NCBI GenBank assembly: GCA_964469505.1 | Contig: CAYXZO010000003.1 | Span: 820-64,819, forward strand | Direction: 5' to 3' | Length of the DNA: 64,000 bases | DNA from: an uncultured Lentisphaeria bacterium | Lineage (GTDB): Bacteria > Fidelibacterota > UBA8477 > JABMPR01 | Part shown: positions 4,793 through 25,217 of the stretch, one piece after another | Position numbering within the stretch: position 1 is the stretch's first letter | Layout of the letters: each line of letters starts with the position of its first letter | Program-made: the position numbers and the translations under genes | The notes under the pieces: generated by a model | Databases searched by the model: none | What the model saw: only the letters and a program-made list of their open reading frames with translations | What the model was told of the DNA's origin: nothing

Positions 4793-4835
4793 CTTAAAGG
4801 GGCTGGTAAAATAAGCTGACCGATCAAAGAGTTTG

Positions 4836-4927
4836 CGGGAATGTATAGGAGTCGAACCTATCTGCCGGGTCCACACCGGCACAACAGCTTTGAAGGCTGC
4901 GGTAGCCACCGGGCTACAGACATTCCC
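4836..4927 (-). tRNA. selC: tRNA-Sec (selenocysteine tRNA), anticodon UCA
   Basis: Minus-strand read: GGGAATGT-CT-GTAGCC-CGGT-GGCTAC-C-GCAGC-CTTCAAA-GCTGT-(22-nt variable arm, GCCGG/CCGGC stem)-ATAGG-TTCGACT-CCTAT-ACATTCCC-G. The 8-bp acceptor stem and 6-bp D-stem are perfect, the D-loop is 4 nt, and the stems follow the bacterial 8/5 rule. Anticodon loop CUUCAAA and T-loop UUCGACU are identical to E. coli selC. No CCA is encoded. Confidence 0.85.
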
Positions 4928-15758: not shown

Positions 15759-17111
15759 GTGATTGATATTTCTGACCTGAACTACAAAAACGTTCTTACC
15801 CTGGTATGTGCCGTTTATTTTCACGCCGTGCGTATTCTGGAAGTAGAACCGAACAGTATTGCCGCCCAATATAGACTCCGGGCCGGCGATGATTTACGCC
15901 GGATCAACGGCCATCCCATTAGGGACGCACTGGATTACCAATTCTATGCGGCCGACTCCCAGCTGGAACTAGCAATAGCCCGGGAAGGTAAGCTGCTCAC
16001 CATCCAGATACACAAGCTGCCGGAAGAAGAGCTGGGAGTGGAGGTTGAACCGCTGAAAATTCGACCCTGCGCCAACAATTGCGTATTCTGTTTCGCCGAT
16101 CAAAATCCACCCGGAGTACGGGAATCTCTGAATTTTAAAGATGGTGACTACCGTTTCAGTTTTCTGGCCGGGCATTATATCACCATGACCAATATGGGAC
16201 CAAAACATTTGGAGCGGGTCGTTCAACAAAGATTGAGTCCGTTATACATTTCAGTGCACGTCACGAATCCTGATGTACGCCGGAAACTATTCGGGCTTAA
16301 GAAAGAGGATTATTTACTGGAGAAAATTGAATATCTGGTTGCGCATGGAATAGAACTACACACTCAGATCGTAGTATGTCCCGGGTGGAATGATGGACAG
16401 GTACTGGAGCAAACTTTGGCGGACTTGCACCGGTTTACCCCAGGCATCCTATCGATCACCCTGGTACCGGTAGGACTCACTAAATGGCGTCAAAACCTGA
16501 CCCCTTTACAGAAAGTGACCGCAGGATATGCCAAGGAATTCCTTGCCCGGGTCCCCATCTGGGAAGGGGAATATCGCCGATCTGACGGTCAACGGCTGAT
16601 TTTCCTGAGTGACGAGTGGTTCTTGTTGGCGGGCGCGCCCATCCCCCCGACAGATTATTATGGTGACTTTGCCCTGTTGGAAAACGGGGTCGGTCAATGT
16701 CGGAATCTGGCAGAAACGTTGGCAATTGAAAAAGAGGACCTACCATCGCGTTTAAGCCGACCGGTACGTCTGTTATTCCCAACCGGCCGCTTAGTGGCGC
16801 CTTGGTTGAAAAGGTTGTTGCGTTCCCACCTGGATTCCATTGAGAACTTGGAATGGGAGCTGATACCCGTGGCTAATAACTGGCTGGGAGCTAATGAAGT
16901 AACCGTCACGGGATTACTGGGGGGACGGGATATTAGCGAGCAAGTACGGGCATATGGTCCCGCTGATATGGTTTGGCTCCCGGAAAAGATTTTCAATTCC
17001 GATGGTCTTACCCTGGACGATTGGGACCTGGAGAAACTGGAAAGGGAAATAGGTTTGCCGGTAGATTTACATCATGAAAGTCTGGTGGAGATATTAGCTC
17101 CATGGAGCTGA
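15759..17111 (+). CDS. Radical-SAM-like Fe-S protein with N-terminal PDZ-like domain (DUF512 family)
   Basis: GTG start preceded by an AGGAGA ribosome-binding site. Cx3Cx2C motif (CANNCVFC). 450 aa. Confidence 0.55.
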   Translation: MIDISDLNYKNVLTLVCAVYFHAVRILEVEPNSIAAQYRLRAGDDLRRINGHPIRDALDYQFYAADSQLELAIAREGKLLTIQIHKLPEEELGVEVEPLKIRPCANNCVFCFADQNPPGVRESLNFKDGDYRFSFLAGHYITMTNMGPKHLERVVQQRLSPLYISVHVTNPDVRRKLFGLKKEDYLLEKIEYLVAHGIELHTQIVVCPGWNDGQVLEQTLADLHRFTPGILSITLVPVGLTKWRQNLTPLQKVTAGYAKEFLARVPIWEGEYRRSDGQRLIFLSDEWFLLAGAPIPPTDYYGDFALLENGVGQCRNLAETLAIEKEDLPSRLSRPVRLLFPTGRLVAPWLKRLLRSHLDSIENLEWELIPVANNWLGANEVTVTGLLGGRDISEQVRAYGPADMVWLPEKIFNSDGLTLDDWDLEKLEREIGLPVDLHHESLVEILAPWS

Positions 17112-18418
17112 AATTACCGCTGGTAGTTATTGTTGGTCGGCCAAATGTGGGGAAATCCACCTTGTTCAACCGGTTGGTGGGACGGCGTCATGCTATCGTA
17201 CACCCCCAGGAAGGGATAACCCGCGATCGAATAGCGGAAGAAGTGGAATGGAACGGGCGCCGTTTCAGACTGGAGGATACAGGGGGGTACCTACCCCAGG
17301 GAGAAGATGAAATCACCGCCGCCGTCAGGGAACAGGCTTTGGCCGCCGCCCAGGAAGCTCAAGTAGTTATTTTCTTACTGGATGCCCGGGTGGGTCTCAC
17401 CGAAGAAGACATCATATTGGGCCGGATGCTTCGGAAATCGTTCGATAAAGTACTGGTAGCGGCCAACAAGCTAGATACTCCCGGACGGCTGGAAGAATTG
17501 CCTGACCTTTACCGCCTGGGCTGGTCTCAGATTTTCCCCATCAGTGCCCTCAACGGCACCGGAGTGGGTGACCTGTTAGACGCGGTAATTGAGAAGCTCC
17601 CCGAGTCCAAGGTTGTTCCGCCGGAAAAGAAAGTAGTTAGTTTTGCGATTGTCGGAGCCCCCAACGTGGGAAAATCCAGTTTGACCAATGCTCTGTTGGG
17701 GCAAAAACGGCAGATTGTAACCTCCATCCCCGGCACTACCCGTGATGCGGTCAATGCAACCTTCAAATACTATGGTCGCCTGTACGAGATGATTGATACG
17801 GCAGGGCTACGGCGCCAGGCAAAAATCAAAGACTCCTTAGAATTTTACAGTTCGGTCCGTACACAACGGGCCATTCGGCGCGCGGAGATCGTAGTATTGC
17901 TCCTGGACGTGGAACGTATGTTCACCAGGGTGGATGCCAAAGTAGTGGAACAGGTAACGGAAGCCGGTCGTGGCCTGGTGATCGCCATGAACAAATGGGA
18001 TTTACCGGAAAAAACCACCCACACCATGGATCTGATCCGTCGGGAGATCCAGGACCAATTGCCGGAATTGCGTCATTACCCGCTGGTGTTTATCTCTGCT
18101 TTGAAGAAGCGGCGTCTACATACTTTGATGGCTGCCATAGATGAAGTCCACGCAGCCTACCATAGACGTATTTCAACCTCTGAGGCCAATCATTTTCTGG
18201 AAGATGCGCTAGGGCAGCTACAACCACCGGCGGTGAAAGGTAAAAAAATCACTATCAAATACATGACCCAGGCGGAAACAGCTCCTCCACGCTTTCTGTT
18301 CTTTACCAACCATCCGCGTTTGATTACCGAATCCTACCGCAAATACCTGGAAAACAAACTAAGGGAGCGCTTTAATTTCGTCGGGGTACCCTTGAGGTTG
18401 ACCTTCCGTAAAAAATGA
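17102..18418 (+). CDS. der: Ribosome-biogenesis GTPase Der (EngA), tandem GTPase domains plus KH-like C-terminus
   Basis: Two P-loops (GRPNVGKST, GAPNVGKSS) and DTAG motifs. 438 aa. Confidence 0.9.
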   Translation: MELKLPLVVIVGRPNVGKSTLFNRLVGRRHAIVHPQEGITRDRIAEEVEWNGRRFRLEDTGGYLPQGEDEITAAVREQALAAAQEAQVVIFLLDARVGLTEEDIILGRMLRKSFDKVLVAANKLDTPGRLEELPDLYRLGWSQIFPISALNGTGVGDLLDAVIEKLPESKVVPPEKKVVSFAIVGAPNVGKSSLTNALLGQKRQIVTSIPGTTRDAVNATFKYYGRLYEMIDTAGLRRQAKIKDSLEFYSSVRTQRAIRRAEIVVLLLDVERMFTRVDAKVVEQVTEAGRGLVIAMNKWDLPEKTTHTMDLIRREIQDQLPELRHYPLVFISALKKRRLHTLMAAIDEVHAAYHRRISTSEANHFLEDALGQLQPPAVKGKKITIKYMTQAETAPPRFLFFTNHPRLITESYRKYLENKLRERFNFVGVPLRLTFRKK

Positions 18419-20693: not shown

Positions 20694-21626
20694 ATGAAAA
20701 AAATCTGGTATGTACTCTTCAGCCTGGCATTACTGAGTGTTCCTTCAATGGCTGCCCAAAGGTTAGTGCTGGCGGAAGAGTTCACCAACGTTGGGTGACC
20801 ATCCTGCGGTCCCACTGAGGACTACCTGGACGGGTTCCAGGCACAACATCCCGAAAGCGTGGTTTTCATTGCTTACCACATGTCTTGGCCCCAAGGCAAC
20901 GACCCTTACTATCTGTACAACACTACTGAGAATAATGCACGGCGAAGCTATTATGGTGTCAATGCAACTCCCAGCTTAGCGGTCAATGGTTCGCTGACAA
21001 ATCTCTGGCCTCCGCAACCGGCGTGGGGTAATCTCATATTACAGGAAGCCACCATATCGGCGCCTATCAGCATTGACATTGGAGGGGCATATGACACAAC
21101 TGCTCGTCAGGGGACAGCGGAAATCGCCATCTTTACTGAAGGAACGGTGAGCGGTTCCTTCATCCTACATTTTGTCCTGATTGAGAACAATCTATACTTC
21201 ATGGGTGCCAATGGATATCCCAACCATAACAGTGTAATGCGCGACATGATTCCCTCTGCCGCCGGTACACAGATCACTTTAAGCGCAGGTGACACAACCT
21301 TCGCCAATATTGATTTCTCCGTACCGAGCCCCATCGTCCAAGGTAATGCGGTGTTGGTTGCGTTCGTCCAAAACCCGGTCAATAAGGATGTCCTGAATGC
21401 GGGGCGGGTAGCGGTGCTGGACCTAGCGACCGGGTGTGGCAACGCCATAGGGGATGTGGGGGCGGACGGGCAGATTACCGTGCAAGACCTGGTTCAACTG
21501 GTCAACATCGTCATCGGCATTGATAATGATCCCGACGCGTGTGCTTTACAAGCCGGTGATCTGAACGGGGATGCTCAGGTCAATGTACAGGATCTGGTCT
21601 TGCTGGTGGATTTGATTTTACAGTAG
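20694..21626 (+). CDS. Candidate selenoprotein: secreted thioredoxin-fold protein with U-x-x-C redox motif (in-frame TGA at 20796-20798) and C-terminal dockerin type I domain
   Basis: ATG 20694 opens MKKIWYVLFSLALLSVPSMAAQ (signal peptide), then RLVLAEEFTNVG-[TGA]-PSCGPTEDYLDGFQAQHPESVVFIAYH.... This reading frame is the same as the downstream ORF 20859..21626. A thioredoxin-fold cis-Pro motif (GVNATPSLAVNG) is present. Two dockerin calcium-binding repeats (DVGADGQITVQD, DLNGDAQVNVQD) sit at the C-terminus. selC lies in the same window. Confidence 0.6.
20825..20841 (+). promoter_or_regulatory. Candidate bacterial SECIS hairpin downstream of the in-frame UGA
   Basis: CCUGGA-CGGGU-UCCAGG is a perfect 6-bp stem with a G/U-containing apical loop. 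The loop starts about 33 nt after the UGA, within the 16-37 nt range used for bacterial SECIS elements. Confidence 0.4.
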
Positions 21627-22261: not shown

Positions 22262-22352
22262 GGAGAGGTGGCAGAGTTTGGTCGAATGCACCGCACTCGA
22301 AATGCGGCGTCCCGACGTCTCGGGACCGGGGGTTCGAATCCCTCCCTCTCCG
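22262..22352 (+). tRNA. tRNA-Ser (anticodon CGA), class II with long variable arm
   Basis: Acceptor GGAGAGG/CCTCTCC, anticodon stem-loop CCGCA-CUCGAAA-UGCGG, variable arm GTCCCGA...TCGGGAC, T-loop TTCGAAT. 91 nt, no encoded CCA. Confidence 0.85.
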
Positions 22353-22440
22353 CAAAAGCCCTGAACAGAATTTGGGATCATCAATCTGGATAGCGGACAT
22401 CCTCCGCTTTTTAAATTGGCCCTAGCCGGGAGTCATACTA

Positions 22441-22496: not shown

Positions 22497-25217
22497 CTAT
22501 TTGACCAGAAGCACCTTCAGGCTTTGATCACTTCCACTAGCTTTCAGCCGTACGAGATAGACGCCGGCAGGCATCGGCTGCCCCTGGGCATCAGTACCAT
22601 TCCACTGGACGGTATGATAACCAGCCGCCAAGGATTGCGATACCAGTGTGCGGACGAGGCGACCGCGGATATCGAACACTTGCAGGGTCACTTCGCTAGT
22701 AGCGGGTAAGCCAAACCGAATGTTGGTACTGGGGTTGAATGGGTTGGGATAATTACCAACCAGCTCGACATGGGTAGGAATCGCTATCGTATTATCTACC
22801 GCGTCAGTAAAGTGGATATTCGCCGCTGCGGCCACCGCATCGGCTAAAGTCATATCCGGAATATTATCCGCCGGGTCATCATTATGACAGGCCAGACAGA
22901 CGTGGTTCAAATCCAGCGAGGCAGGCCGAGTCGCGTCGTCCCGGACAGCAGAACCATCATCGGTGAACATGCTGTTATCATCGACAGTGATTCTAAAGAG
23001 ATGGGACCGGACATCAGCCTTGAAACCACTTTGGCCGCGAACTGCACCAGATTTTGCCGCATAGGGCATATGGCATTGTTCGCAATCGGTCATCTCGGGA
23101 TGGTTAGCAGCGACGCTGGTAGCCTCGTTGGCATGACAGGTGCTGCATTCAATCTTGATACCATCGCCACCCCAGAGTACTCGTTTATGGGGATCATGGC
23201 AGGTACCGCAGTTCAAACCGGCGGCAAAGTGCGGACTGGCTACAAATTCATCCCATTGCTCATGATGGCGCACAAAACCACCACTGGCATCAATGGGTTG
23301 GCCCCAACCGCGACTATGGCAATTACCGCAGAGATAGGTGATGTCATCAGCGTTCGGATCCGGTTGGACAACTCCACCATAGTCACCGTAATCCAGACCG
23401 TTGCCGCCAACATTGGGTTGGTATACCTCATCAATGTCCGCTGGATCGTGAGAAGCAACATGATTCCCACCAGGTCCATGACAATCTTCGCAGGCCACTC
23501 CGGCTTCTACGAAATTACCTAAGCTATACCCGGGCAGCCAGCTGCTATCGGGAGTCGCACCGGTGGTATGGCAGCGGAAGCAGCCGTAATTGTACTTTTT
23601 GTCTACGTGATCGACATCGTAGTCAACCCATCCGAGATCTTCGCCTTCGTAGAAATTAAACTGGTTGTGACCTCCACCAGGATTGATCACGCTGCTGGCG
23701 GTACCCGCGATCACACCAGTGGTATCTACGAAACGCACCTTCCACCCGTAACCGCCGATGACTCCCGCGATCTCATCCCAACTGGCACCTAAACCGGACA
23801 TCCAGCTATCTTCGAAGTTTACCACGAAACTGGGATAACTGGGGGCAGTGGCATTTTCAATAACGTGGAATTTGTACGGGTGACCACTATTCTGCCACTC
23901 CTCGTAGATGTTATAACCGAGGACATCATTCACTTCATCATGGCAAGCCCTACAGGTTTGGGAACCTACATAATCGGCCGGTTGGGCATCATGCATGTGA
24001 TGAGCGAATTCCGCCAGTTCATCCACCGTTTTGTCAGGAATGTCATCATTGGGATCATCGTTATGGCAGCTCAAGCAAGCATGATACAGGTCCAGTGAGG
24101 CTGGACGTGTATCATCGTCGCGCACTGCGGAGCCATCATCGGTAAACATACTCTCGGTATTGGGGGTAATGCGGAACAGGTGCGAACGAACATCAGCTTT
24201 GTAACCACTTTCTCCCCGGGCAGTACCTGATTTAGCGGCAAATGGCATATGACATTCGATACACTCGTGAGTGCCGGGGTGAATGTTGTGTGCTTCCTGG
24301 TTGGGATGACAGGTGGCACATTGTATAGTGATGCCGTCACCATTCCACAACACCCGTTTGTGAGGATTATGGCAAGTACCGCAGTTTAATCCAGCCTCGA
24401 AATGGGGACTGGCTACAAATTCATCCCACTGTTCATGATGGCGCACAAAGCCACCACTGGCATCGATGGGCTGCCCCCACCCACGGCTGTGGCAGTTACC
24501 GCATAGATAGGTAATATCATCCGAATTTGGATCGGGCTGGACCACACCGCCGTAATCGCCGTAATCCAGGCCGTCACCACCAATGTTTGGCTGATAAACC
24601 AGATCAATGTTGGTGGCGGAAGGCGCATTTACGTGGTCACTACCGGGACCATGGCAGGACTCGCAGGTTACGCCTTGCTCAACGAAAGTACCTAAACTGT
24701 AGCCCGGCAACCAGCTACTGTCAGGCGAGGCACCAGTAGTGTGGCAGCGGAAACAACCGTAGTTGTACTTCTTGTTCACGTGGTCCACATCATAGTCGAC
24801 CCATCCAAGATTCTCGCCGCCAAAGAAATTGAACTGATTGTGACCACCACCGGGGTTGATCACACTACTGGCAGTTCCCACAATTACACCCGTATTATCT
24901 ACGAACCTCACTTTCCAGCCGAAACCACCTATTACTCCAGCAATCTGATCCCAGGAGGTTCCCAGGCCAGACATCCAGGTATCCTCAAAGTTTACCACGA
25001 AACTGGGATAACTGGGGGCAGTGGCGTTCTCAATGACATGGAATTTGTACGGGTGACCGCTATTCTGCCAGGCGTCATAAATATTATACCCGGAACCGGT
25101 CACATCGGCGGTACCGTGACAGGCATTACAAGCCGCAGATCCCACATAGGTCTGAGCTAGTAATGTTGGTACCGTCAGAACGAGGAACGCACAGAAGAGT
25201 AGCTTTACTTTGTGCAT
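22497..25217 (-). CDS. Secreted hexadecaheme c-type cytochrome with T9SS C-terminal sorting domain
   Basis: Signal peptide and 16 CxxCH motifs: 8 per half (CNACH, CFRCH, CESCH, CGNCH, CGTCH, CATCH, CIECH, CLSCH; then CRACH, CFRCH, CEDCH, CGNCH, CGTCH, CSTCH, CEQCH, CLACH). The C-terminal ~75 aa (LQVFDIRGRLVRTLVSQ...GVYLVRLKASG...KVLLVK) matches a Por secretion tail. Confidence 0.85.
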   Translation of the reverse strand: MHKVKLLFCAFLVLTVPTLLAQTYVGSAACNACHGTADVTGSGYNIYDAWQNSGHPYKFHVIENATAPSYPSFVVNFEDTWMSGLGTSWDQIAGVIGGFGWKVRFVDNTGVIVGTASSVINPGGGHNQFNFFGGENLGWVDYDVDHVNKKYNYGCFRCHTTGASPDSSWLPGYSLGTFVEQGVTCESCHGPGSDHVNAPSATNIDLVYQPNIGGDGLDYGDYGGVVQPDPNSDDITYLCGNCHSRGWGQPIDASGGFVRHHEQWDEFVASPHFEAGLNCGTCHNPHKRVLWNGDGITIQCATCHPNQEAHNIHPGTHECIECHMPFAAKSGTARGESGYKADVRSHLFRITPNTESMFTDDGSAVRDDDTRPASLDLYHACLSCHNDDPNDDIPDKTVDELAEFAHHMHDAQPADYVGSQTCRACHDEVNDVLGYNIYEEWQNSGHPYKFHVIENATAPSYPSFVVNFEDSWMSGLGASWDEIAGVIGGYGWKVRFVDTTGVIAGTASSVINPGGGHNQFNFYEGEDLGWVDYDVDHVDKKYNYGCFRCHTTGATPDSSWLPGYSLGNFVEAGVACEDCHGPGGNHVASHDPADIDEVYQPNVGGNGLDYGDYGGVVQPDPNADDITYLCGNCHSRGWGQPIDASGGFVRHHEQWDEFVASPHFAAGLNCGTCHDPHKRVLWGGDGIKIECSTCHANEATSVAANHPEMTDCEQCHMPYAAKSGAVRGQSGFKADVRSHLFRITVDDNSMFTDDGSAVRDDATRPASLDLNHVCLACHNDDPADNIPDMTLADAVAAAANIHFTDAVDNTIAIPTHVELVGNYPNPFNPSTNIRFGLPATSEVTLQVFDIRGRLVRTLVSQSLAAGYHTVQWNGTDAQGQPMPAGVYLVRLKASGSDQSLKVLLVK
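22757..25088. repeat. In-frame tandem duplication (2 x ~1173 bp) within the cytochrome gene
   Basis: The two 391-aa protein halves are about 85% identical. Antisense shadow ORFs recur at an offset of exactly 1173 nt (23568 vs 24741; 23240 vs 24413). Confidence 0.8.

Follow-up and report, generated by a model that had tools for sequence, protein, structure and literature searches.

Does the internal repeat of a multiheme cytochrome gene reflect a recent duplication, an old one that selection has preserved, or an error of assembly, and what would the doubled protein do? We addressed these questions for a gene on the reverse strand of a 64,000-nucleotide (nt) stretch of contig CAYXZO010000003.1 (assembly GCA_964469505.1, from an uncultured Lentisphaeria bacterium assigned to the Fidelibacterota in GTDB). 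This stretch is here called the window, and all positions refer to it. The gene encodes a 906-amino-acid (aa) c-type cytochrome with 16 CXXCH heme-binding motifs. Our analysis indicates with near certainty that the repeat is an old, real, and selected duplication of a complete octaheme module. As the best explanation overall, and a probable one, we propose that this old duplication was partly homogenized by gene conversion and is part of a protein that probably functions in electron transfer at the cell surface.

Extent and identity of the repeat

The 16 CXXCH motifs were distributed as 8 per half at corresponding positions (Table 1), and a motif scan of the 906-aa protein found no CXXCK, CX3CH, or CX4CH. 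Within the window, this was the only open reading frame (ORF) with in-frame CXXCH motifs; the other match was an antisense shadow ORF inside the same gene. The initial annotation had described an in-frame tandem duplication with an offset of 1173 nt (391 codons), which raised the heme count from 8 to 16, and had named an off-diagonal at this offset as the test. Both the duplication and the doubling of a complete 8-heme unit (8 + 8 CXXCH) were borne out. A self-offset scan of the gene displayed the off-diagonal as a peak at 1173 nt (52% matching bases versus a background of ~30%) and at 391 aa, with a secondary peak at 393 residues originating from two small indels. Two pairs of 300-nt direct repeats were spaced start to start by exactly 1173 nt (23123-23422/24296-24595 at 78% and 23458-23757/24631-24930 at 75% identity), and local alignment of the halves matched aa 24-409 to aa 416-802 with a score of 1730. 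Tandem Repeats Finder reported no repeat in the gene because its period limit is 500. The repeat had been annotated at 22757-25088, but the unit begins ~20 codons further upstream; it extends from Y24 (window position 25148), heme 1 included, to H802 (22812). The antisense shadow ORFs at 23568/24741 (+) and 23240/24413 (-), to which attention had been drawn, exist and are mere by-products of the repeat.

Over 383 aligned codons, the two modules were identical in 79.4% of residues (304/383), less than the ~85% estimated at first, and in 72.2% of nucleotides. Protein identity amounted to 87% in the middle part and 65% in the last third, with some stretches at 97 to 100%, and identity by codon position was 85%, 88%, and 44%. 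Mosaic divergence along the module, a module number that varies across the family, and a type IX secretion system (T9SS) sorting domain were absent from the initial annotation.

Table 1. Features of the duplicated cytochrome gene in the window
Feature	Position	Strand	Basis
Whole gene, 906-aa multiheme c-type cytochrome, 16 CXXCH; stop codon 22497-22499	22497..25217	(-)	ORF list, motif count
Predicted N-terminal Sec-type signal peptide, aa 1-21 (MHKVKLLFCAFLVLTVPTLLA, followed by QTYVGS)	25155..25217	(-)	Inspection of the sequence
Octaheme module 1, aa 24-409; CXXCH at aa 30, 155, 185, 239, 279, 300, 319, 381	23991..25148	(-)	Alignment of halves, motif count, single-module AF2 model, Foldseek
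Inter-module linker, aa 410-415 (DAQPAD)	23973..23990	(-)	Stretch between the two aligned blocks
Octaheme module 2, aa 416-802; CXXCH at aa 422, 546, 576, 630, 670, 691, 712, 774	22812..23972	(-)	Alignment of halves, motif count
T9SS type A C-terminal sorting domain (beta-sandwich), aa 823-906	22500..22751	(-)	Profile scores above cut-offs, AF2 model
Module 1 core, aa 55-276; beta-rich insert, hemes 2-4, invariant HH260/261; 87% identical to partner	24390..25055	(-)	Column-to-coordinate mapping, region identities, bootstrap
Module 2 core, aa 446-667; partner of 24390-25055	23217..23882	(-)	Same basis as module 1 core
Module 1 C-terminal third, aa 277-412, hemes 5-8; 65% identical to partner	23982..24389	(-)	Region identities, bootstrap, mapping
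Module 2 C-terminal third, aa 668-805, hemes 5-8	22803..23216	(-)	Region identities, bootstrap, mapping
38-nt identical stretch, module 1 (encodes ATAPSYPSFVVNF)	24988..25025	(-)	Longest shared exact word; identical to 23815-23852
38-nt identical stretch, module 2 partner	23815..23852	(-)	Identical to 24988-25025

Age of the duplication and soundness of the assembly

The duplication had been annotated as recent, which would imply young copies, near-identical in DNA and prone to collapse or expansion during assembly. The repeat is indeed in register and in frame, its protein stretches are in part nearly identical, and one relative, P0010 in locus L008, does carry a 1069-nt perfect repeat. The synonymous sites of the present gene nevertheless refute a recent origin, because they are saturated. 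Between the modules, the Nei-Gojobori method gave a proportion of synonymous differences (pS) of 0.83, which is beyond correction, and a nonsynonymous distance (dN) of 0.138. Among the 304 identical residues, 132 used the same codon in both modules, compared to 133.6 expected from the gene's own codon usage (z = -0.2). Synonymous positions were thus indistinguishable from random, and therefore the duplication, or its last homogenization, is ancient. The overall DNA identity, the third-position identity, and a longest exact common word of 38 nt argue in the same direction, as does the occurrence of the same architecture in independent assemblies, so that a recent duplication is extremely improbable.

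An artefact of assembly or binning, such as a chimeric join or the expansion of a single-module gene, would be conceivable in metagenome-assembled data, where repeats can mislead assemblers. However, the copies differ at 28% of nucleotides and therefore do not represent one sequence read twice. A Joint Genome Institute (JGI) metagenome contig (L004) showed 0 nt differences in the gene and 4 over the 8.7-kb locus, two further assemblies contained 906-aa versions with one residue difference each, and >20 relatives had the same two-module layout. The likelihood of an artefact is consequently next to nil. With a longest shared exact word of only 38 nt and the same 906-aa architecture in independent assemblies, the warning of an assembly hazard also lost its ground for this gene.

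Both halves have retained every residue that is invariant across two-module relatives. Retained histidines outside the motifs (55/446, 195/586, 260-261/651-652, 286/677, 346/739, and 409/802) were invariant or nearly so across 151 family modules (H313: 148/151). Since all heme motifs and invariant histidines are kept, and dN is low at saturated synonymous divergence, both copies must have been under strong purifying selection.

Distribution and module number of the family

A search of 5.8 billion proteins yielded a family set of 369 relatives; 125 sequences were examined for heme counts, and 151 modules were placed in a tree. Eight-heme single-module versions, for which a comparison of orthologs had been suggested, exist and form the majority (79/125 sequences, with 8 CXXCH in ~500 to 550 aa). 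Length classes of ~505, ~900, ~1280, and ~1400 aa corresponded to 8, 16, 24, and 32 CXXCH and hence to 1, 2, 3, and 4 modules. By hmmsearch, 83 proteins had one module match, including some fragments and some proteins with extra heme-rich extensions. The nearest non-identical relatives were 59 to 60% identical over the whole protein and ~66% per module.

In their source annotations, the relatives were T9SS sorting-domain proteins of Saprospiraceae, Bacteroidales, Prolixibacteraceae, Marinimicrobia, Fidelibacterota, "Chlorobi," and metagenome-assembled genomes (MAGs) of the Fibrobacteres-Chlorobi-Bacteroidetes (FCB) group. A GTDB scan placed the close family (50 to 57% identity) in Bacteroidales, Marinilabiliales, Prolixibacteraceae, Ancylomarina, Saprospiraceae, and Marinimicrobia, followed by Fidelibacterota and Melioribacteraceae at 41 to 44% and by remote relatives at 25 to 38% in Chloroflexota, Gemmatimonadota, Planctomycetota, and others. 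An exhaustive HMMER search returned 1310 clusters (50% identity) at E <= 1e-3, 123 of them at E <= 1e-30.

Some relatives were enlarged in another way. P0005 (1561 aa) and P0008 (1555 aa) combined two octaheme modules with an extension of ~770 aa that contains seven more CXXCH (23 in total), and P0047, P0052, and P0058 had one module plus a similar heme-rich extension, a second direction in which the family has expanded by modules. Dockerin domains (PF00404) were present in the long relatives P0005 and P0052, and a window ORF at 20859-21626 (+) encodes an Omp28-like domain with a C-terminal dockerin-type repeat; this hints at protein-protein docking at the surface in these lineages.

Mosaic divergence between the two modules

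Divergence between the modules differed markedly between the core (alignment columns 26-250) and the C-terminal third (columns 251-386). The p-distance was 0.133 in the core, where the nearest outside modules were at 0.34, and 0.346 in the C-terminal third, where the nearest outside modules were at 0.30 to 0.32. Pairs of modules from different proteins with a core distance of 0.10 to 0.15 had a mean C-terminal distance of 0.217 (5-95% range, 0.106 to 0.329), and the present pair lies outside this range. Bootstrap support for a clade of the gene's own modules dropped from 1.00 in the core to 0.14 in the C-terminal third. Likewise, lineage-specific residues common to both modules occurred at 12/218 positions of the core versus 1/136 of the C-terminal third (Fisher p = 0.02). 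The distance of the C-terminal thirds to outgroups (0.40 to 0.42) was close to the ~0.40 expected for that core distance and thus not unusually large. Because of this near-normal outgroup distance and the scarcity of shared residues, an old duplication with later homogenization of the core fits better than a late duplication with acceleration of the C-terminal third.

The 38-nt stretch shared by the modules was the only significant island of nucleotide identity between them (P = 0.0018; 5000 codon-randomized simulations). In the ortholog P0124, the same stretch was identical between its two modules as well, with different synonymous codons, which suggests a recurrently converted spot. In the present gene, the tract may stem from a later micro-conversion.

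Concerted evolution in relatives and the case for conversion

Concerted evolution was directly demonstrable in sister lineages. In the C-terminal third of three sister groups, orthologous modules (m1-m1, m2-m2) were much closer than paralogous ones, and therefore the duplication predates speciation there. In the core of the same groups, paralogs within a gene were closer than paralogs across genes and as close as, or closer than, orthologs. The core mismatches for within-gene m1-m2, cross-gene m1-m2, and orthologous comparisons were 16, 35-36, and 34 in P0017/P0019 and 26-36, 57, and 51-53 in P0012/P0016; in P0123/P0124/P0007, they were 24-25, 32-38, and 16-29. The core was thus homogenized within each gene after speciation.

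Synonymous sites of other relatives displayed the same regional contrast. The same-codon excess of P0024 fell from z = 7.7 in the core to 1.7 in the C-terminal third, and in P0010 (L008:4944-7652; Neomarinimicrobiota MAG NIOZ-UU68; two modules), the core was 100% identical in DNA, compared to 92.6% in the last third. The perfect direct repeat of P0010 has an offset of 1176 nt; it reflects either very recent gene conversion or duplication or a short-read consensus artefact, and it is there that an assembly hazard would really apply. By analogy with these lineages, it is moderately likely that inter-module gene conversion also shaped the gene in the window.

Alternatively, a single old duplication without conversion could have left modules whose heme 5-8 third diverged faster by adaptation to position, as the end of the first module would dock the next module and that of the last module would face the sorting domain or the substrate. 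The three-module proteins P0002 (L012:4266-8111) and P0003 bear such a signature: the heme 5-8 third of their last module was the odd one out (0.29 to 0.32, versus 0.13 to 0.15 between modules 1 and 2), and P0004, also with three modules, exhibited the same pattern in weaker form (0.24 to 0.26 versus 0.11). This suggests "internal" and "terminal" versions of the heme 5-8 part. A positional signal in the C-terminal third extended across the family (cis < trans in 155/236 pairs, with 17 ties), and the synonymous sites of the present gene fit both explanations alike. However, neither of its C-terminal thirds was unusually far from outgroups, and shared lineage-specific residues, some of which a late duplication should have left, were nearly absent from this region. 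Moreover, since relatives show the regional contrast at synonymous sites as well as in the within-versus-cross comparison, protein-level selection alone is insufficient. Taken together, we consider position-specific adaptation without any conversion unlikely.

One duplication or many

In the neighbor-joining tree of the 151 modules, the two modules of the present protein were sisters with 100% bootstrap support, nested among single-module proteins, and the nearest outside module was ~66% identical. Many other multi-module proteins formed clades of their own modules in the same manner. At face value, the tree thus indicates many independent duplications; its signal is, however, regional. A lineage-specific duplication, one of many in the family and not derived from a common two-module ancestor, would agree with this topology, with the lack of positional orthology in the C-terminal third, and with a module number that ranges from 1 to 4 even among close relatives. 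Yet concerted evolution, as demonstrated in the sister clades, also yields own-module clades. In addition, the first 25 alignment columns matched each module of this gene to its positional counterpart in the P0123 clade, first to first and second to second (14 versus 24 mismatches, with "CHGTA" and "CH-D/N-EV" in common), a weak hint of a shared two-module ancestor. An independent origin is therefore quite possible without being the expected case; it is compatible with the explanation proposed above except for the timing and number of events.

Export and protein layout

The product is probably a Sec-exported, T9SS-sorted multiheme c-type cytochrome destined for display at the cell surface or for release, as judged from both ends of the predicted protein. 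The hydrophobic N terminus, with LLA preceding Q, was visible in the sequence and formed a helix at residues 2-19 in the AlphaFold2 (AF2) model, and the mature part of single-module relatives begins with the same AQTYVGS. At the other end, the sorting domain (aa 823-903) scored 36.0 bits with TIGR04183 (cut-off, 23) and 28.0 bits with PF18962 (cut-off, 27). PF13860, a FlgD-Ig-like fold, reached 52.3 bits (cut-off, 27) on the C-terminal domain, which was all-beta in the AF2 model with a predicted local distance difference test (pLDDT) score of 83 to 92. The family profile also matched the C-terminal domain of PorU and FlgD Ig-like domains in the PDB.

Fold and heme sites of the module

The AF2 model of a single module, based on 79 aligned sequences, had a pLDDT of 78 and a predicted template modeling (pTM) score of 0.79. 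Foldseek matched it in the PDB to MccA (4rkm; E = 3.7e-11; template modeling score relative to the query [TMq], 0.49 to 0.51), OmhA (6qvm; 7.7e-7), and OcwA (6i5b; 3.5e-6), with no significant match beyond these three. The matches to OcwA and OmhA had a Foldseek probability of 0.99 to 1.00 at a TMq of only 0.3 to 0.4. A family profile search of the PDB returned the same proteins (MccA, 1.5e-11; OcwA, 3.6e-9; OmhA, 3.1e-6). Together with cytochrome c554, they make up one structural clade of the NrfA/octaheme superfamily, and all members of this clade reduce nitrite or nitric oxide (NO) in vitro (PMC9250108). In OcwA, a terminal reductase of the cell surface, hemes 2 and 5 each have an open side below a His-His motif (PMC6703420); two penta-coordinated hemes in this setting mark the OcwA/OmhA type (PMC6703420, PMC9250108).

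An invariant pair of histidines was present once per module (H260/H261 and H651/H652); a second pair, HH405-406, occurred in module 1 only and was not conserved. Although the model is heme-free, we infer that H260/H261 would be the equivalent of the OcwA His-His motif, and each module possibly contains an open, substrate-accessible heme 2 under this pair. Further invariant core residues around heme 2 were K58, K102, R104, Q128, N130, and Y142.

Two known enzyme types were considered and rejected. For an MccA-type octaheme sulfite reductase, the eight-heme fold fits, but CX15CH for heme 8 is missing, all motifs being CXXCH. The Cys pair for the Cu(I) site is missing as well: each module has 16 Cys, Cys outside CXXCH were absent in 150/151 family modules, and with no cysteines beyond those in CXXCH there is therefore no copper site. 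A pentaheme nitrite reductase of the NrfA type was ruled out by the lack of CXXCK in the protein.

Genomic context and host

In the related loci (L005-L022), a response regulator of the LuxR/GerE or OmpR type, often together with a histidine kinase, adjoined the cytochrome gene in 11/20 cases, and expression of the cytochrome is probably signal regulated in many lineages. No two-component regulator was found beside the gene in the window, and no conserved porin-cytochrome partner in the 20 related loci. The locus of the ortholog P0124 (L001:1-18751; GCA_964535735.1) comprised a two-component system, a [NiFe] hydrogenase cluster, an EB_dh-domain protein, an Rrf2 regulator, a Rieske/cytochrome b pair, and another multiheme protein, a respiratory neighborhood without a counterpart in the window.

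Scans for promoters and terminators gave results at chance level. A convergent tRNA-Ser(CGA) gene (22262-22353, +) ends 144 nt from the cytochrome stop codon and is followed by a terminator-like hairpin at 22392-22408. The window also harbors a selenocysteine tRNA gene at 4835-4927 (-) (Rfam, 72 bits; ARAGORN anticodon TCA), and therefore the organism probably makes selenoproteins. Its Der GTPase (17102-18418, +) was, its own population aside, at most ~53% identical to any of the 5.8 billion proteins. The nearest named sequences (~50 to 53%) were from Marinimicrobia MAGs, then from the FCB group, Calditrichaceae, and Ignavibacterium, so that the source of the window is a deep FCB-type lineage with few sampled members, to which Marinimicrobia are nearest.

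Proposed history and function

We propose that the whole mature module was duplicated in tandem and in frame, presumably via unequal recombination, in an ancient event after which strong purifying selection has kept both copies functional. The heme 5-8 thirds of the two modules have been diverging independently since about the time at which the lineage split from its sampled relatives, and the heme 2-4 core would have a later common ancestor, most likely via inter-module gene conversion as in the sister lineages. This last homogenization of the core must also be old because synonymous sites are saturated. Conversion between the modules would keep the cores uniform.

After maturation of the heme-loaded protein in the periplasm, the T9SS would deliver it to the cell surface or into the medium, where it may provide a 16-heme electron transfer chain outside the outer membrane and, similar to OcwA and OmhA, carry out the terminal reduction or oxidation of substrates that are extracellular or insoluble. 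The duplication would then lengthen the chain or add a second reactive site, and the number of modules (1 to 4) would set chain length and capacity. For such a role in extracellular electron transfer, we see about an even chance. A two-module enzyme acting on a soluble N- or S-oxyanion of the nitrite, hydroxylamine, sulfite, or tetrathionate class, extracellular or periplasm derived and no conduit to solids, is the less likely alternative, although a serious one: the sulfite reductase MccA was the best structural match, the whole structural group shares the nitrite or NO activity mentioned above, and conservation of the core near heme 2 is higher than would be usual in a surface wire. On the other hand, the module lacks CXXCK, CX15CH, and the extra Cys of the MccA copper site, and the sorting domain puts the protein outside the cell, where its nearest surface homologs, OcwA and OmhA, act on solids as terminal reductases and have no more than slow side activities (PMC6703420).

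Several observations weigh against the proposed combination of old duplication, conversion, and surface electron transfer. As to the history, positional orthology between the C-terminal third of this gene and those of other two-module proteins was not found (2492 versus 2495 mismatches), and therefore a shared ancient duplication is not demonstrated. The same-codon excess of this gene differed only marginally between core (z = +1.4) and C-terminal third (-1.5), because everything is saturated, and the within-versus-cross test for conversion was not applicable, the closest non-identical relatives of the gene product being only 59 to 60% identical overall. As to the function, the AF2 model of the full-length protein (pLDDT, 55; pTM, 0.34) was too poor to judge module packing or continuity of the heme chain across the junction. 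The neighbors of the gene are housekeeping genes (for a tadA-like deaminase, tRNA-Ser, hflX, der, a BatA-like protein, and rpe), and the 64-kb window encodes no outer membrane electron conduit or other cytochrome. The family, which spans Bacteroidota, Marinimicrobia, Fidelibacterota, and Ignavibacteria-type MAGs, is apparently uncharacterized, and none of the papers retrieved on multiheme or c-type cytochromes together with the T9SS described multiheme T9SS cargo.

In a wider and more tentative proposal, T9SS-exported arrays of OcwA/MccA-like octaheme modules might constitute undescribed outer-surface electron transfer proteins of FCB-group bacteria (Marinimicrobia, Bacteroidota, Fidelibacterota, and Ignavibacteria type). 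The T9SS might then have a second role as the exporter for extracellular respiration, chain length (8, 16, 24, or 32 hemes) might be tuned as whole modules are gained or lost, and conversion might keep the substrate-facing heme 2-4 core uniform while the heme 5-8 part specializes by position. If a role in extracellular electron transfer is true, the T9SS would be linked to mineral or shuttle respiration in the FCB superphylum, and the family would offer a natural series for asking how the length of a heme chain affects function.

What had been framed as a recent duplication and an assembly trap is thus largely corrected to an old and stable one, and the analysis exposes a widespread family of multiheme cytochromes, secreted by marine and sediment lineages that are poorly represented in culture, including Marinimicrobia. 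The mosaic offers a clean case of probable gene conversion confined to one region of a gene, and it serves as a warning that module trees of repeat proteins can mimic independent duplications.

Comparison with known systems

Tandem repetition of heme domains as a route to large cytochromes and T9SS cargo as a class are already known. Multiheme cytochromes as T9SS cargo, a series of 1 to 4 whole OcwA/MccA-type units, and concerted evolution restricted to a region of the unit appear to be undescribed. Like type A cargo of the T9SS, such as gingipains, SprB-type adhesins, and glycoside hydrolases, the present protein combines a putative Sec signal peptide with a C-terminal beta-sandwich sorting domain above curated cut-offs; unlike these, it is a heme-loaded redox protein.

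OcwA, a nonaheme cytochrome of Thermincola potens (PDB 6I5B), and OmhA, an undecaheme cytochrome of the Carboxydothermus ferrireducens S-layer (PDB 6QVM), are homologous to the module by fold and profile, and both sit on the cell surface, outside the cytoplasmic membrane. Near the start of its heme domain, OcwA further contains a beta-sheet insert (PMC6703420); the module model has beta strands at residues 72-120. In contrast to both proteins, the module contains eight canonical CXXCH instead of 9 or 11, is only 17 to 18% identical over the Foldseek alignments, and lacks their long C-terminal helix bundle, its longest helix having ~9 residues. It is tandem repeated, whereas OcwA and OmhA are single units, and it is coupled to a T9SS sorting domain in a diderm rather than anchored to a Gram-positive wall or S-layer. 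MccA of Wolinella succinogenes (PDB 4RKM), which matched best by both structure and profile, has eight hemes as well, and its heme 1 and heme 5-7 regions align motif for motif with the module; however, it is a periplasmic protein of 732 aa, compared to a module of ~390 aa in a protein sorted to the surface.

Repeated heme domains are also found in the Geobacter dodecaheme cytochrome GSU1996, with four c7-like domains, and in MtrC and OmcA, with two pentaheme halves. As in the present protein, a heme-binding unit repeated in tandem within one polypeptide lengthens the heme chain. Here, in contrast, the repeated unit is a whole enzyme-like octaheme module of the OcwA/MccA type, close relatives differ in its copy number (1 to 4), and part of it evolves in concert.

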